NCBI GenBank assembly: GCA_964501605.1
Contig: CAZCTB010000065.1
Location: 1 to 55,948 of the forward strand
Source: an uncultured Candidatus Peribacteria bacterium
GTDB lineage: Bacteria > Patescibacteriota > Gracilibacteria > Absconditabacterales > Absconditicoccaceae
Length of the DNA stretch: 55,948 nt
Direction of reading: 5' to 3'
Positions 4,160 to 33,636 of this stretch are shown piece by piece. Below the pieces are notes generated by a model. It did no database searches. It was not told the origin of the DNA and was given only the letters and a program-made list of their open reading frames with translations. Positions within the stretch are counted from its first letter, which is position 1; each line of letters starts with the position of its first letter. The position numbers and the translations under genes were made by a program.

Positions 4160-6313
4160 TTGGCTAGAAGAAAGTATAGTAGAAGAAAAAAGAAAACATT
4201 AATTCTAAATAAATATAAACTTTGAGTGGTTATGTTTCTCCTTTGATGATTGTATTTTTTTTCTTTATATCTGGCTAAATGATCTCCAATATTTGAAATA
4301 TTAACTAACTATGCTAGTGTGGTTTTTTGAGAAATATGATTAAATATATTTTTTGGTTTGTGTATGCTTGTTTGAATATTGATTATATCAAAGTGATATT
4401 TGATGAATCTTTTGATAAAACAATTTTTAGTTGTTATGGTTTTGGTTTCTTGAATAATTAATTTTCCAATTATAGACTGAGATATTGTCAAATATGAATC
4501 TTTTGGTTGATATATTTCTTGGCCTTTAATAGAACTTTTAAATATGATGTTTGGTTTTCAGGCTACTGCAGTAAAATCTTTTATAATTATTTTATTTGTT
4601 GGTTCTATAGTTCGAGTACTTTATACATTCAATTTTTCTATACCCAAAATAAATGTTAAATTTGAAAAATATAAAAGATCAAAATCTAAAAAAACAAATA
4701 GATCATCAAGATCTGATAGAGAAACAACAAATGCTATTGCAAAGAAAATAAATGAAACGAAACAAGATTTTGGTAAGCAAAATCCTAAAGAAGTTTCTCG
4801 TTCATTTATAAAAACTATGATTAAACAAAAAGCAGAAGAAAAGATTCAAGAAAGGAAGCCAAGGCCTATGATTAAATTTTCATGAGATAAGCCCACATTT
4901 GATATATCTTTGTTAAAGTCTAATGCAGGTGTAACAACTACAATAGACGAAAAATTTTTGATGGATAAAGCAAGATCTTTGCAAAGCAAACTTAAAGAAT
5001 TTAATGTGGCTATAAGTATTGAATGATTTGATCTCTGACCATCTATAGTACAAATTAGGGTTAAGCCAGAAGCTGGCATTGCTATATCCAAAATTGAGGC
5101 TCTTTCAAATGATATTAAATTATCTTTGAAATCTAAATCTCTTAGAATTATAGCACCAATTCCTGGTACTGATTCTGTTTGAATACAGTTACCAAACCCT
5201 AAACCAACAATTGTAAGAGTTTGAGATATGTTGAGTTCAAAAGAATTTCAACAAAGAATGAACAAATCTGATACCAATTTGACTTTATGAAAACAAATAG
5301 ACTGATCTATCATTACAAAAACCTTACAAGATATGCCTCATCTATTGGTAGCTTGAGCTACCTGATCAGGTAAGTCTGTATGAGTAAATGACTTTATATT
5401 ATCTCTTATGTATCAAAATTCTCCATCAGAACTAAAATTTTTGATGGTAGATCCAAAGCAAGTTGAACTAGAACTATATTCATGACTTCCATATATGCTT
5501 TGACCGATAGTTAGCGATCCTGATAAGGCATTGAAACTTCTTAAACGAGCAGTAGATGAGATGGAAAGAAGATATACATTATTAAAAGACAAAAGAGTAA
5601 AAAATATAGAAGAATATAACAAAAAAGTAATATCAGAAAAAATGTATCGTATAGTATTTGTAATAGATGAATTAGCAGATATGATGATGCAAAAAAACAA
5701 GAAAGAAGTAGAAAACGCTATTACGCGTATTGCACAAAAAGCTCGTGCTATATGAATTCATTTGATTGTTGCTACGCAAAGACCATCTGTAAATGTAATT
5801 ACGGGTCTAATTAAGGCAAATATGCCTACTAGAATAGCTTTTGGAGTAGTTTCAGAAATTGATTCAAGGACAATTCTTGGAAGAAAATGAGCTGAAGATT
5901 TGGTATGAAGATGAGATATGCTTTATATAGACCCAACCACAAAATGGCCGGTAAGAATACAGGCCCCATTCGTAGAAACTAGTGAGATAGAAAAGGTTGT
6001 AAAGACACTAAAGGACAAATATATGAGATGATTGTCAGAAGATGATATTTACAATCCAGAAATAATTAAAGCTCTAGAAAGTAAACTTGAAACAGCATGA
6101 TGATCTTATTCTGGATGAGGAAGTTGATCAGATGAAGAACTTATAGAAAAGGCAATACAGGTTATATCACAAACAAGAAAAGCATCAGCCACTTTATTGC
6201 AAAGAAAGCTTAATATTTGATTTGCTAGAGCGGCTAGAATTATGGATGAACTAGAAGATAGGTGAATTATTTGACCACAAGATTGAGCTAGAGCTAGAGA
6301 GATATTTATTTAG
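4160..6313 (+). CDS. ftsK: DNA translocase FtsK/SpoIIIE
   Basis: N-terminal TM region followed by the motor domain: LLVAGATGSGKSV (Walker A, both flanking Gly are TGA), [40 protein letters not shown], and a C-terminal gamma-like winged helix ([23 protein letters not shown]). The TTG start at 4160 ([12 protein letters not shown]) is inferred; the alternative is ATG 4232. Confidence 0.9.
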
Positions 6314-6328
6314 ATTTTTTTAAAACAT

Positions 6329-7156
6329 ATGATAAATGATATCAAAAAAATAAAAACTTCATGGTTAAATATTTTTATTGGATTTTGTGTTTTAACATTT
6401 GTCTTTATTATACAACAAAATTCTGCAAAAGCTGATACAATAATAGTAAAACCCCAATATTCTAGTAGTAGCATGACAGATTTTATAAGTCAAAAATCAT
6501 TAAATTTTTTGGATGAGAATATCAAAAAAGCTAAAATCAATTATCAAAACAATTTTGATATGAATTCAGATTATTCTTTTCAAAAATATATTTCTGATGA
6601 AAACTTATTGAATAATAAAAAATATAAACCATCAGATTTGGTTCAAATAGATACTGAATACATAGTAAATAGGGCTGGTAGACCATTTTTACGTCAACCT
6701 GCACAAATAGCGTTTGAAAAACTAGCTAAAAAATTTAATGAAGATTTAAAAAAAAACTTATATCTTGTTAGTGCCTATAGAACATATAGAGATCAAGCAA
6801 CACTTTTTGAATGATGATGTTCTTCCACTAGGTGTGCAAAAATATGATGAAGTGAGCATCAATTGTGATTAGCTGTAGATATTCATCTTGCTACAAAAAA
6901 TTGATATAATATTTTATGATGAGACAATTTAGATTGGTTGAATGGAAATGCGTATAAATATTGATTTATAAATACATATCGTAAATGAGCAAAAATAGAC
7001 TGAAAGATGAAAGAAGTTCGACATTGGAGATATGTTGGGATACCTTTGGCTACAGAGCTTTACAAAAGGGATATGAGTTTCGCAGAGTATTATAATACCA
7101 CTGTCATTCCGACCGAATACCGCAGTATTGCGGTAGTAGCGGAGGAATCCCTTTAA
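6329..7156 (+). CDS. Peptidase M15 / VanY-like D-alanyl-D-alanine carboxypeptidase with signal anchor
   Basis: SAYRTYRDQATLF, SEHQLGLAVDI, WLNGNAYKYGFINTY and EV-[CGA]-HWRYVG (family consensus EPWH.RYVG). The last ~17 codons and the stop lie inside a GTCATTCC...GGAATCC repeat copy. Confidence 0.85.
7103..7151. repeat. GTCATTC-family palindromic element, variant copy, forming the 3' end of the M15 peptidase CDS
   Basis: gtcattccgaccgaataccgcagtattgcggtagtagcggaggaatccc. Preceded by ataatacca-ct, as in the copy at 9909. Confidence 0.7.
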
Positions 7157-7237
7157 AGTGAATGCAAAAAAGATATTTCCCCATCATTATACTTAGTCGA
7201 GATGATAATTGTTGTTTATATTATAATTAAGTAAAAA

Positions 7238-7810
7238 ATGACAGACAAAGATTTACAAGACAAACTTGAACAAGCTGAAAAAGAAAATAAAAAAAAATCA
7301 AAATCAAAAAAAGAAAAAAAACTACAAGAAAAAATTGAAAAATTTCAAAAAGAATATGATGAACAGACAGAAATGCTCAAAAGAGCACAACATGATTACA
7401 TTAATCTTAAATTTGATTTTGATAGGTTTCAAAAACAAGTAGAAGAAAAAGAAAAAGAAAGTGAATTAAATTCATTAATTTCTAGTGTTAAAAAGTTTTT
7501 ACCATTTGTAGAAGATTTAAGAAAGTCTTTGGATAATATACCAAAGGATAAAAAATCAGAACCATTGGCTCAATGAGTACAGCTTGTTTATGACAATTTT
7601 TTGAAAACTCTAGAGTGAATGAATATAAAACAAATAGAAGCTGTATGATTGGAGCCAGACTCAGCATTACACGAGCCAGTTTCAGTCCAGCCAGTAGAGG
7701 ACAAAAAAATGAAATGAAAAATAGTACAAGAATTTGAAAGATGATTTGTTTATAAAAAAGATAATAAGCAAGTAGTGTTAAATACCTCAAAAGTAATAGT
7801 AGGTCAATAG
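7238..7810 (+). CDS. grpE: Nucleotide exchange factor GrpE
   Basis: K/E-rich coiled N-terminus, then LKRAQHDYINLKFDFDRFQKQ...FLPFVEDLRKSL...HEPVSVQP...VLNTSKVIVG. 190 aa. Confidence 0.88.
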
Positions 7811-29084: not shown

Positions 29085-30701
29085 ATGAAAAAGCTTTACC
29101 CAAGGTTTTTATTAAGATTATCTTTGTTTTTTGCTTTATTTATTTGATTCACATTTGCAGAAGACCCAGATGCTTTTTTGGTTCAAGTAGAACCAAGTAG
29201 TTTTGGTGTTTCTGAATCTATAGATGTTACAATTAGCGCAGTTAAGAGTTGAATAATAGTAAAGGATTATATATGAGATGTATTTATAGAAGTAGAATGA
29301 TTAATGCCAGATGATTATGTTGTACCTAGTGATGGCTTGTATTCTTTTCTTATACAAGATCAATGAATAAAGTTATTTTCAAAATGATTAGAAATAAAAA
29401 AACCTGGTACATACAATCTTAAAGTATCAGATATTATAGATGAAACAGTTATGTGAGAGACTACGGTTATCGTTGGTAACGCATGATGAAACTCAAATTT
29501 AAAAGAAGTTGATATAACATCACCAACTGATGGTAGCACAGAAAGGAGTTCTGCAACCAATATTATTTGATCTAGTTCAAATTTACCAAATTCTCCAGTA
29601 GAAATATATTTGAACAACGAATCAGTAGCTAATTGACACACCGATTCTCAATGAAATTTTAATGTTTATATTCAGTGATTACAAGAATGACAAAATCAAA
29701 TACAAGCTAAAATTACAGATATCAGTGATATTGTTTTGTGAGAATCTGATGTTATTGTTTTAAATTATGAATCATTTTCCGATGGTATATACAATTCAAT
29801 AGAAATTTTACCATCCAATAATATAAAACAGTGAGACAAGGTCTCCTTCAACATTTATACTTCAGAAGAAGTTACTTCTTGAGAGTTGGAGTTTAGCGAC
29901 AATCAAAAATTTCCTTTAGATAGATTGTCTCCTTGAGTATTTAATAAAGATGTGGTTTTGACTTCACAGGGTAGTATAGATATTTCTTTGTCTCTTGTTG
30001 TTGATGGTAATAGTGAATATTATGAAGATGTAGCAAATATATTTGTTCAACAAAATGATTCCATATCAAATATTAGATTCCACTCTGTATGAGTAGATGG
30101 TACTTCTGTAAATGTTTCTTGGGATCCTATTTGAGATGCTCCAAAATATAGAATATCTTATGGTACAGATAGAAATAGTTTACAAAAAACTGTAGATGTA
30201 AACTCTACACAAGTTTTAGTAGAAAATATACAATCAAACACTGTTTACTATTTTCAGATATTACCACTAGATGAATGACTTCATGCTTCTTGAGAGCCAT
30301 CAGAAGTGGTTGAATATAACCCAAAAGAAGTTTATTCTTCTTGTGTTGTGAAATGAATTATAGTTACATCAGAAAAAATAGGAGATAAATATTATCTCAC
30401 GCGAGATGATGTTGAAAATGTTACAAAATATGAAGTATACAAATCAGAGCGAGAAGATATGTCTGATATGAAAAAAGTATGAGAGACAACAGAAACTAGG
30501 TTTGAATATAATTTTAATAAATATGCTGAAAGTGATCAATATGCTTATTATCAAGTTGAGGCTATATGTTCAGATTGATCAAGTGTAACAATAGATGAGG
30601 CAAAAGAAGTTAAAGTATGACCATTTGAAAATACTTTATTAGTTATAATTATAGCTTTTTTCTTTTATAGTATATATAGGCTTTACAAAACAGCAGATTA
30701 A
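29085..30701 (+). CDS. Cell-surface protein with Ig-like and fibronectin type III-like repeats and a C-terminal TM anchor
   Basis: Signal peptide (LSLFFALFIGFTFA), beta-rich repeats, two FN3-like units (SVNVSWDPIGDAPKYRISYG; YYLT-[CGA]-DDVENVTKYEVYKSE), and a C-terminal LLVIIIAFFFYSIY. Confidence 0.72.
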
Positions 30702-30738: not shown

Positions 30739-33636
30739 ATGAATAAATTCCCTAAAAAATATAATTATCAAAACACAAAATTAATAAAAGAAAATTGAAA
30801 TAAATGGAAAAACATTGATTCTACACTATTTCCAGCTGATAAAAAATTACATCCTGGTTGTATATTTTCTTTGTACTATCAAGATTTGTTTAAAGAACTA
30901 TATAATTTACAAAATAAGTATTTTAATCCAAACTTATCTTTTTGACTTTCTTCAGATTTTTATTCTAAATTAAATAATCCAAATATTAATTTGAAACACA
31001 TTGAATCTCAGGTTTTTGGTCAAATTAAACAAAACAAAAAATTTGTAAATAAGCTTTGACTTTGATTCAACTTAGATTGAGATATGTTCGTTTATTCAGA
31101 AAAATTTAATCGTTATATAAGAAAGGTTTTTGTTGAACTTTATAATAAATGATCTATTTCTCTTAAAAAAGAAACAATTAATCGAAGTAAGGATTATCAA
31201 ACAAACTTATTCAAAAATAATATAAATGTTAAAGAACAAAAAACAAAAGAATATATATTAAAATATTTCATAGATTCAAAAGGACATGCATTAACTGTCC
31301 CCACAACTAATCTAGAAACTATATTTGCAGATGTTTGAGTAGCTGTAAACCCACAAGATAAAAGATACAAGAAATTAATATGACAAAGTGTGATTGTCCC
31401 CATAACAAATAAAATTATACCAATAATTTGAGATGAGAGTATTGATTCATTTAAATGATCTTGAGTTTTTAGAATAACGCCTGGTCATGATCAGTATTGA
31501 TTAGAGCTTGCACAAAAACATAATTTACCCACAAATATATATGCTATAGATGTTCATGGTAAATTTACAAAAAACGCATGAGAATTTGCTTGAAAGTCTG
31601 TGGAAGATTTTTTTGATAATATAGTAAAATACATAGATGATATATGAAATTTAGAGTCTAAAAACAACGTTTTAGTAAAACAAAATTTTGATGTACGTAC
31701 ATGAGAGAAGTTAGATAGTATCACATTGGATCAGCGAAGTATTAATTATTCTTATTCTTTAGATTATCTTTTACAAAAATTTTCAGATCAAAGAATATCT
31801 TGTTTACCATTAGATTCACAAGAAAATATAATATCTTTATTGGAAGAAAAAAAATCAGTAAATATTTCTAATAAGTCCACAAAATGAGTTTTAGTTCCTA
31901 TAGTAAACTCACACAAATGAGAAACTTTCCCAATAAATGACGATATAGTTCTAGATAGATACAAGATTTCAAAAACAAAAAGAACTTTAACTCTAACTTT
32001 GATTATATTAAATTTGATTTTAGACAATCATTTATCTTGCTCTTTTACTATTGAAGAACTAATTGACGCTCTTTTTTCTGTGGATTTATCTTGAAAAAAA
32101 ACAAAAATAGAAAGATATATAGACATATATAAAACTGAATCAAAGATCAAAACAGAATATAAAAAATGATTAAAGGAAATAGAAAAATTGGTGTGAAAAC
32201 TAAAAAAAGATAGTGAAAATATCAAAATAATTTTAGATTTATTAAAAAATTCTTTTGCTATAAAACTTGATTGAAATAATATCTATTTAGATTTTTCATC
32301 TATATTTGCCAAAAGAGATATATTAGAGCTACAAAGAGAGGATGGGTTTAACAAATCATTTATAGATAGTGTGCGATTTTTGTACAAAAATAATTTATCA
32401 AAAGATTTTTGATCTTATGAAAATATAAAAAATAAAAAATGATTATTTTTTACATGATTAGATGAAAAAGATTTTGTTTTAAATACAATGCTTTTATCGT
32501 TGGAATATTCAAAAAATTTATTATTTTCTTCATTGTTTTTTCATCCTATATTGATTGATATAAATCAAAAAAAGATAGTAAATAATAATTCTAGATTTTT
32601 GATAAAAGATTTTTGAGAAAATCTTAGCATATATTGACCAGATGTTATGAGGCTAGTTCTATTATTGTGAGAAAAAGAATTAAATAACACAAAATTTGAT
32701 ACATATACAGCACAACAATATAGCAATTTGTTAAATAAAATTTGGAATGCATATAGGTATGTTTATAAAAAACATATAGAATGAAAAAAAGAAATTAATA
32801 TAAAAAAAATAATAAAAAAAATAAAATTTGATATTACAAGCTATGATCTTCGAATAATACATGATATAAAGACATTAATAGATGATTTTGAATATCAGTT
32901 CTGAGAAAACAAAATTTTACCACTTTGAAAAAAGGTTATTAATTTTATAAAAGAAAATCTTTGTGATAAATATTTAGAATCTACAAAACTATATTCAGAC
33001 AACAACACTCCAGAAGTTATGATGTTGTCATTTGCCATTTTACTAAAGCTTGCAAAACCATATATTCCTTTTTTTATATCTCATTTAGAGTCTATATTGA
33101 AGATAAACCGAGAAGGTTATGATGTTTTTGAATTTAAAAACTTTGAATTAAAAGAAAAAAATTATAAAATAAATTTGTTAATGGATATAGTAGATAAACT
33201 AAAGAACATAAAATTAAAAATCTGATTAAAAAAGCATCAACATATAGACATATTTGTACAGGCTAATCCTGATTTTTTGGATTTTTTAATACAGAATGAA
33301 GATTTATTAAAATCACTTGTTAAAATATGAGATATTAGATGTGTTAGATTACATGAGGATGTACCAAGTTGATATCAAATAGACAATGTGATAAATATAA
33401 ATATATGAGCAAAAAGAATTTCAGAACAAATAGAAATAAAAAAAGATATTTTGTTAGATTTAAAAGAAGAGTATGAAAACAAAAAAGAACATATACAACA
33501 TCTAAAGTCTTTAATGGCATCTATTTCTCAATCAGGTAATGAAGATGCTTTATCTCAAAAGAAAAAAGAGATACAAAACTTACAAAAAGAAATAGATGAT
33601 TTGGATTTTGAAATTAGTAAGCTTAAAGCAAAGTAA
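30739..33636 (+). CDS. Valyl-tRNA synthetase homologue with degenerate HIGH/KMSKS signatures (965 aa)
   Basis: ValRS editing-domain block: [64 protein letters not shown]. DQ-[CGA]-S matches QWF. Has the C-terminal coiled coil typical of ValRS. All triplets scanned, no TAA/TAG. Confidence 0.75.

Follow-up and report, generated by a model that had tools for sequence, protein, structure and literature searches.

Can a valyl-tRNA synthetase (ValRS) that has lost the motifs of its charging site still have a place in a bacterial cell? This question is raised by a gene on contig CAZCTB010000065.1 of an uncultured Candidatus Peribacteria bacterium, assigned to the order Absconditabacterales (assembly GCA_964501605.1). 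Positions 1 to 55,948 of the contig, 55,948 nucleotides in all, were analysed and are called the window here. The original prediction, made from the sequence letters, described the product of the gene as a ValRS homologue with eroded class I signature motifs, and left two readings: an extremely divergent enzyme that still functions, or a non-catalytic paralogue that retains tRNA binding or editing. In this study, a second, intact ValRS gene was found elsewhere in the genome, and the window gene was found to have lost its charging site and to be under purifying selection. Probably, the native bacterial-type valS ceased to charge tRNA after a ValRS of the PRK13208 type became available, and was retained as a pseudo-synthetase. 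The gene is as follows.

30739..33636, + strand: putative ValRS-derived pseudo-synthetase gene, 965 codons plus stop, with 35 TGA codons read as Gly and 5 CGA codons read as Trp.

Is the reading frame real? The frame is open only under translation table 25, in which TGA is read as Gly; under table 11, no open reading frame (ORF) of at least 100 amino acids was found between 30000 and 34500 of the window. At the composition of the contig (27% GC), the chance of a 965-codon frame free of TAA and TAG is about 2e-30. Three of the CGA codons (W149, W333, and W705) occupy columns where 90% or more of the canonical ValRS sequences have Trp, in agreement with the published change of CGA/CGG to Trp in Absconditabacteria (PMC8629427). 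The N-terminus (M..FPKKY) lines up with the homologues, and thus the start codon is sound. At codon 254 (31498-31500), the members of the genus (g1) exchange TGA, GGC, and GGT for Gly, which directly supports the TGA = Gly assignment from inside the gene.

The product is clearly ValRS-like, as had been predicted. Models of valS rank first in NCBIfam, with scores far below their cut-offs: the top match is PRK05729 (290 bits against a cut-off of 704), and TIGR00422 gives 250 bits against 612. The Pfam tRNA-synt_1 model matches only as a fragment (30.7 bits, profile positions 107-250). An AlphaFold2 (AF2) model, for which an alignment of 72 sequences was used as the input, covers the full length with a predicted local distance difference test score (pLDDT) of 88.3 and a predicted template modelling score (pTM) of 0.82. 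Its best match in the PDB by Foldseek is 1gax_A, the Thermus thermophilus ValRS with tRNA-Val, over the full length (E 7.6e-39). Thus, the protein is predicted to fold as a full-length bacterial ValRS with the whole architecture, including the C-terminal antiparallel coiled coil. The features that had been noticed by eye, namely the QW motif (with W333 encoded by CGA), the YGPDVMRL block, and the coiled coil, are all present.

The charging site is a different matter. The window protein was aligned by MAFFT with canonical bacterial-type ValRS sequences from sister genera, and the eroded HIGH, WCISRQ/WGH, and KMSKS motifs fell exactly at the positions that had been chosen by eye. The PPPNVTGxLHxGHA block reads P-ADKKLHPGCI. 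Within it, HIGH (HxGH) has become K-L-H-P-G-C-I, in which the second His is lost; even the first His is Asn in four members of the genus. The WCISRQxxWGHRxPVW block reads VNISNKSTKGVLVPIV, and KMSKS reads K612-I-V-N-N616, the preceding HGL..D motif being lost too. GTDHAG, DTWFSS, and ETGYD are replaced as well, which adds three losses to those listed originally. To quantify the erosion, columns with a conservation of 90% or more across 75 canonical ValRS sequences were scored for whether they are kept in the clade of ValRS copies to which the window protein belongs, called the degenerate clade below. The eroded parts, with the columns kept and, for the first, the ratio of nonsynonymous to synonymous substitution rates (dN/dS) against the closest relative G001, are as follows.

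30739..31188, + strand: N-terminal Rossmann half, eroded, residues 1-150; 7 of 41 columns kept; dN/dS 0.20.
30832..30870, + strand: HIGH remnant, residues 32-44, PADKKLHPGCIFS; second His lost.
31753..32613, + strand: C-terminal Rossmann half with insertions, residues 339-625; 9 of 51 columns kept; WCISRQ/WGH, DTWF, and ETGYD lost.
31852..31908, + strand: WCISRQ..WGHRxPVW remnant, residues 372-390.
32542..32595, + strand: HGL..KMSKS loop remnant, residues 602-619; KMSKS reads K-I-V-N-N.

In the C-terminal Rossmann half, a helical insertion of about 100-130 amino acids lies between the WGHRxPVW and DTWF positions (window 31936-32328, residues about 400-530) and holds a conserved TLII.NLI.D motif. 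Both the degenerate clade and the order's canonical bacterial-type ValRS have this insertion, which is absent from the T. thermophilus ValRS.

In total, 16 of the 92 canonical-conserved columns of the catalytic core are kept and 76 are not (about 83% lost). Every motif that binds ATP, valine, or the adenylate is gone. Since these motifs are lost and so few Rossmann columns are kept, aminoacylation by the window protein is not credible.

Which enzyme, then, charges tRNA-Val in this bacterium? The genome has one tRNA-Val(UAC) among the 30 tRNAs detected. The rest of the assembly (988 kb, 95% complete) was searched for a second canonical valS, and a much stronger TIGR00422 match was found on contig C22 (G000:C22:2647-5046, - strand). 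This ORF of 807 amino acids shares its code with the window gene (21 TGA codons and 11 CGA/CGG codons), and several of its CGA/CGG codons stand at classic Trp sites (QWF, DTWF, and IPVWY). The GC content of contig C22 is that of the genome. The protein scores 937 bits with the PRK13208 equivalog model, whose cut-off is 738, and has PPPTVSGKLHIGH, KFSKS, TTRPE, and GDETD; all the catalytic and editing motifs are intact. Orthologues are found in seven other members of the genus at 74-87% identity, and in an eighth as a C-terminal fragment at 92%. Six motifs checked in the PRK13208-type copy were all intact in 14 of the 16 relatives examined, those with a whole copy, and in the remaining two they were intact in the assembled parts (the G005 copy is cut by a contig end and the G018 copy is broken after about residue 517). 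Judging by these motifs, the PRK13208-type protein on C22 is the working ValRS of the genome. Thus, the window gene, which is neither the only valS nor one with a conserved active site, is a non-charging paralogue, because an intact second valS exists and the motifs of its own charging site are lost.

Is this arrangement common in the order? In the 141 species-level genomes of the order, all in a single family, a PRK13208-type gene scores above the cut-off in 57. Every genus checked that has a degenerate copy also has a PRK13208-type enzyme or a full-length match to the model, with one exception, G142. This complete genome has a degenerate copy and a canonical bacterial-type ValRS (L073 and L074; G142:C1:153600-156850 and 834300-837600), and no PRK13208-type match was found in it at E <= 1e-100. 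Since G142 has a second canonical bacterial-type copy instead, the charging enzyme that took over differs between lineages.

The window gene is under purifying selection along its whole length and is not a pseudogene. Against G001 (79% amino acid identity, synonymous divergence dS 0.83), the overall dN/dS is 0.116, and it is lower in the CP1 domain (0.073) and the anticodon-binding domain (0.093) than in the eroded N-terminal part. The frame, some 960 codons long, is intact in all nine genomes of the genus (9/9), and full-length open frames are also present in relatives sampled from 13 genera. At the same time, the degenerate ValRS evolves faster than the working ValRS: the window protein is 51, 50, and 41% identical to its counterparts in G002, G004, and G007, while the working ValRS is 87, 79, and 75% identical. 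The conservation is uneven along the protein. Among 18 representatives of the degenerate clade, the mean pairwise identity is 0.19 in the Rossmann halves, 0.41 in CP1, and 0.26 in the anticodon-binding domain, compared with 0.62 and 0.50 (the two Rossmann halves), 0.60, and 0.49 in the canonical copies.

What has been kept, then, is above all the CP1 editing domain, in which one segment of the pocket has been rewired.

31189..31752, + strand: CP1/editing domain, the best-conserved module, residues 151-338; 26 of 43 canonical-conserved columns kept; dN/dS 0.073.
31471..31512, + strand: rewired editing-pocket segment, R245-I-T-P-G-H-D-Q-Y-G254-L-E-L-A258; G254 is a TGA codon.

CP1 has 188 positions, of which 42 reach a conservation of at least 80% in the 18 representatives, compared with 2-4% of the positions in the Rossmann halves. 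The pocket was numbered by a phmmer alignment of the window protein to 1GAX. R216, T219, K270, T272, D276, and D279 of the T. thermophilus enzyme, which from work on 1GAX I take to line the ValRS editing pocket, correspond to N191, T194, R245, T247, D251, and G254, respectively. D279 is the universal editing Asp of class Ia; the Asp at this position hydrogen-bonds the amino group of the substrate in IleRS, ValRS, and LeuRS, and its change to Ala lowers deacylation by about 10^4-fold (PMC4861432). Every member of genus g1 has Gly (TGA, GGC, or GGT) or Ser at position 254, and the Asp anchor is exchanged for Gly or Ser across most of the degenerate clade. Leu255 and Ala258 stand in place of the canonical Phe/Tyr and Gly, and conservation among the 18 representatives is 80% or higher at R245, P248, H250, and A258. 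Thus, the CP1 block that had been recognised in the original prediction is present and its fold is kept, but it is not fully canonical (D279 to Gly254, R216 to Asn191, and K270 to Arg245), and the window protein lacks the full combination of the Thr-rich motif and the universal Asp anchor that marks a CP1 editing site. Since the anchor of the amino group is replaced, ordinary editing of Thr-tRNA-Val, and standard editing in general, is unlikely. The working ValRS is in any event equipped to edit Thr-tRNA-Val.

The C-terminal part of the protein consists of the following domains.

32614..33123, + strand: helix-bundle anticodon-binding domain, residues 626-795; NKIWNAxRY and CDKYLE..K kept; 18 of 29 canonical-conserved columns kept.
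33124..33432, + strand: C-terminal junction, the domain on the anticodon-stem side, residues 796-898; placed by the AF2 model and the full-length Foldseek match to 1GAX.
33433..33633, + strand: C-terminal antiparallel coiled coil, residues 899-965; AF2 helices at 902-932 and 935-964; aligns with the canonical coiled coil.

The Anticodon_1 model (PF08264) matches at 29.5 bits (cut-off 25.1). The coiled-coil model PF10458 was not detected in the Pfam search of the window protein, although the AF2 model has the coiled coil. Among the 18 representatives, conservation reaches at least 80% at K667, W669, N670, and R673 of the NKxWNAxR motif, and W705, Y745, E747, and K750 of the same domain are also conserved. 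The idea of a non-catalytic paralogue thus holds in that the charging site is missing while purifying selection maintains the CP1 fold, the anticodon motifs, and the coiled coil; its editing half, however, is unlikely in the standard form, given the replaced Asp.

Where did the degenerate copies come from? Full-length relatives make up about 50 clusters in a public protein collection; one of these is labelled 'class I tRNA ligase family protein' by NCBI and one 'valyl-tRNA synthetase' by JGI. Scores of hidden Markov models (HMMs) were tried and rejected as a classifier, as a profile of the degenerate clade gives canonical members 600-780 bits, which overlaps the scores of divergent degenerate ones. 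Because of this overlap, the copies in the 141 genomes were classified by motif on fetched loci. Degenerate copies were found in 13 genera (g1, g8, g11, g13, g35, g40, g41, g44, g47, g51, g54, g57, and g58). The 28 degenerate sequences form one clade (Shimodaira-Hasegawa-like approximate likelihood ratio test (SH-aLRT) 100, stem 0.44), which spans at least 13 genera, and a smaller tree agrees. The clade is nested within the order's own bacterial-type ValRS as the sister of the canonical enzyme of G023. The derived pocket residues shared by its members are an independent argument for a single origin. The gene order points in the same direction of descent from a native valS.

29085..30701, + strand: gene for a surface protein with an fn3 domain (Pfam fn3), the upstream neighbour, 37 nucleotides from the window gene.

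The same fn3 gene is the upstream neighbour of the degenerate copies in g1, G015, G018, and G020 and, in G023, of the canonical valS. Since this neighbour is common to both kinds of copy, the window gene stands at the ancestral valS locus. The product of 29085-30701 has 538 amino acids, with a signal peptide, the fn3 domain, and a C-terminal membrane anchor; within the genus it is 70-91% identical, better conserved than the adjoining degenerate ValRS.

Some relatives look like stages along the path from a charging enzyme to a degenerate copy. G011 and G019 carry both types of ValRS, both intact. In G011, the PRK13208-type gene and the intact bacterial-type valS lie head to tail about 0.5 kb apart (L032/L047; G011:C172:1801-4194, 4715-7291). 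The bacterial-type ValRS of G024 (L060/L061; G024:C136 and G024:C105) keeps HVGH, GTDHAG, and KFSKS and has an altered editing site (TTHPET and L-T-L-S-P-A-H-N-A-R-D, with Lys changed to Thr and D276 to Asn). G024 also has a PRK13208-type ValRS; its bacterial-type enzyme could be an editing-defective intermediate stage. The G015 copy retains HLGH and has lost KMSKS.

What might a ValRS without a charging site do? In the scenario that I consider probable, a second ValRS of the PRK13208 type became available, the native valS would then have stopped charging tRNA, and selection would have kept it as a pseudo-synthetase. Binding of tRNA-Val would persist: the conserved helix-bundle motifs would read the anticodon, the coiled coil would touch the elbow, and CP1 would take up the 3′ end. 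The main functional site would be the rewired CP1 pocket, with its change of Lys to Arg and of Asp to Gly/Ser and its fixed neighbouring Leu and Ala; the pocket is favoured because an unused one should not hold new residues for so long. It is quite possible, if somewhat short of probable, that the pocket holds or senses the 3′ end of tRNA-Val without any chemistry. More tentatively, it may hydrolyse a non-standard acyl-tRNA without a free alpha-amino group, and a role outside tRNA is unlikely for it. The boldest proposal, which is likewise tentative, is a dedicated tRNA-Val factor whose sole working site is the re-specified CP1 (Arg245, Gly/Ser254, Leu255, and Ala258), which would recognise or hydrolyse a 3′ end without a free alpha-amino group. 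If true, this would be the first CP1-based trans-acting protein for tRNA quality control or sensing, and one widespread in Absconditabacterales.

Several points weigh against this scenario. The presumed binding of tRNA-Val is deduced solely from the retained motifs and the fold. The residues of 1GAX in contact with tRNA are those that I assume to be so, and their numbering comes from the 1GAX alignment. The CP1 pocket motifs are eroded in three deep branches, g41, g47, and g44; thus, a role centred on CP1 cannot hold for the whole clade, and the degenerate ValRS of these branches may have a different role. Long-branch attraction may contribute to the monophyly of the degenerate clade. Finally, the neighbours of the window gene (SecA, a hypothetical protein, the fn3 surface protein, and a DsbA-like protein) gave no functional hint at this locus. 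A scan of this AT-rich DNA for promoters and terminators gave counts no better than those of shuffled sequences.

The explanation that survives best beside the retained pseudo-synthetase is a trans-acting deacylase, in which the rewired CP1 clears acyl-tRNA-Val that the working ValRS cannot handle (for example, N-blocked or non-alpha-amino acyl groups), with the tRNA brought in by the coiled coil and the anticodon-binding domain. CP1 is indeed the most constrained domain, the pocket residues T194, T247, H250, and D251 are kept, and the recurrence of R245, G/S254, L255, and A258 across most of the clade resembles a change in specificity rather than decay. Such an enzyme would, however, have to work without the Asp anchor, whose loss costs homologues about 10^4-fold in deacylation (PMC4861432), and without R216 and P217 of the Thr-rich motif; its pocket is eroded in g41, g47, and g44, and the working PRK13208-type ValRS has an intact editing site of its own. 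Nor does a vacant role for a deacylase seem to exist. Of 24 relatives, 23 have Pth (PF01195), and the assembly of the one without it is 86% complete; Dtd (PF02580) is patchy among the relatives in a pattern that is not complementary to the degenerate ValRS; by these two results, the replacement of a lost tRNA hydrolase was ruled out. Altogether, the deacylase is doubtful.

It is improbable that the protein has left tRNA altogether and that the ValRS body serves only as the frame of a protein scaffold, a binder of another RNA ligand, or a regulator. Such a role would fit the most derived branches, in which erosion has reached part of the anticodon-binding motif as well as the CP1 pocket and the gene persists, and function is also unknown for the comparable LeuRS-I and LeuRS2 (PMC9437257). 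However, the best-kept residues are those of CP1 and the NKxWNAxR motif, not those of a new surface, and neither an added domain nor a conserved partner gene was found in the Pfam search and the neighbourhood comparison.

The first of the two readings offered originally, a strongly divergent ValRS whose non-canonical motifs would still support the charging of tRNA-Val, is very improbable. The full-length ValRS fold and the purifying selection even in the Rossmann halves would suit it, but the motifs for ATP, amino acid, and adenylate binding have all been lost together with about 83% of the conserved columns of the catalytic core, and the Rossmann identity is 0.19 within the clade compared with 0.50-0.62 in canonical copies. 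A canonical valS is present in the genome besides, and the other degenerate-copy genomes examined have a canonical copy or a full-length match to the PRK13208 model. Least tenable of all is a decaying pseudogene that has not yet acquired stop codons, which would explain the evolution faster than that of the working ValRS but not a dN/dS of 0.12 at dS 0.83 or frames that are intact in nine genus members and 13 genera at 27% GC, where the chance of an open frame is about 2e-30.

Is the degenerate ValRS related to the altered genetic code? The change of CGA/CGG to Trp in Absconditabacteria has already been published (PMC8629427). A tie between the window ValRS and codon reassignment had been suggested, but CGA = Trp occurs in relatives both with and without a degenerate ValRS, including those that have canonical copies only, and the degenerate ValRS marks only a subclade. 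The link was therefore rejected, there being no association between the two traits. ARAGORN called a tRNA with anticodon CCG located 56 nucleotides downstream of tRNA-Trp(CCA) (G000:C7:7760-7962) and one with anticodon UCG (G000:C70:5434-5506), which, by their anticodons, fit the published reassignment. Elsewhere in the genome, the matches to class I synthetase models at G000:C36:6108-7190 contain 3-4 internal TAA stops; this gene is probably metS, and it may be broken, or the model match may cross frames.

The current labels of the family (valyl-tRNA synthetase; class I tRNA ligase family protein) hide both its inability to charge and the true valS elsewhere in the genome. In this family, nature has run a clean experiment on the fate of an essential synthetase after takeover by a second enzyme: the catalytic core drifts to 19% identity, the domains for proofreading and anticodon binding stay conserved, and new pocket residues become fixed in most of the clade. 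A protein of 965 amino acids is costly to keep in very small genomes. Should the rewired CP1 prove to have a ligand or an activity, bacteria with such genomes would possess a tRNA-handling factor of a new kind.

How does the window protein compare with known systems? It shares with the T. thermophilus ValRS (1GAX; PRK05729/TIGR00422) the order of domains, namely Rossmann, CP1, helix bundle, junction, and C-terminal coiled coil, and with bacterial ValRS in general the CP1 core, the QW, NKxWNAxR, and CDxYxE motifs, and the YG.D..R block. Unlike them, it lacks the signature motifs, has Gly for the editing Asp and Arg for the Lys, and is not the only ValRS of its genome. AlaX, ProXp/YbaK, and Dtd derive from or are related to the editing modules of aminoacyl-tRNA synthetases (aaRSs) and act on tRNA without charging it (PMC7373986). 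They resemble the window protein as relatives of an editing module that do not charge tRNA, but they are single editing domains with intact catalytic residues, whereas the window protein is a full synthetase body with a replaced editing Asp. No CP1-based trans-editing factor of class Ia was found in the literature searched, and no publication found there describes aaRS paralogues in Absconditabacteria or a pseudo-synthetase derived from a ValRS, which is not proof of absence. A degenerate ValRS family with a conserved, rewired editing domain is what is new here.

By analogy, the nearest published counterparts are LeuRS-I of Sulfolobaceae and LeuRS2 of Halobacteria, which bind tRNA-Leu, charge it barely or never, and have no known role (PMC9437257). 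Like the window protein, they are full-length class Ia paralogues that stand beside a working enzyme, have lost charging (a loss read from the sequence in the present case), and are kept by selection. LeuRS-I, however, still makes the adenylate and has a disrupted CP1 (PMC9437257), whereas in the window protein the adenylate site is gone and CP1 is the best-preserved part. LeuRS-I and LeuRS2 are archaeal leucyl enzymes, while the window gene is bacterial, derived from a ValRS, and resides in a genome in which TGA is read as Gly.

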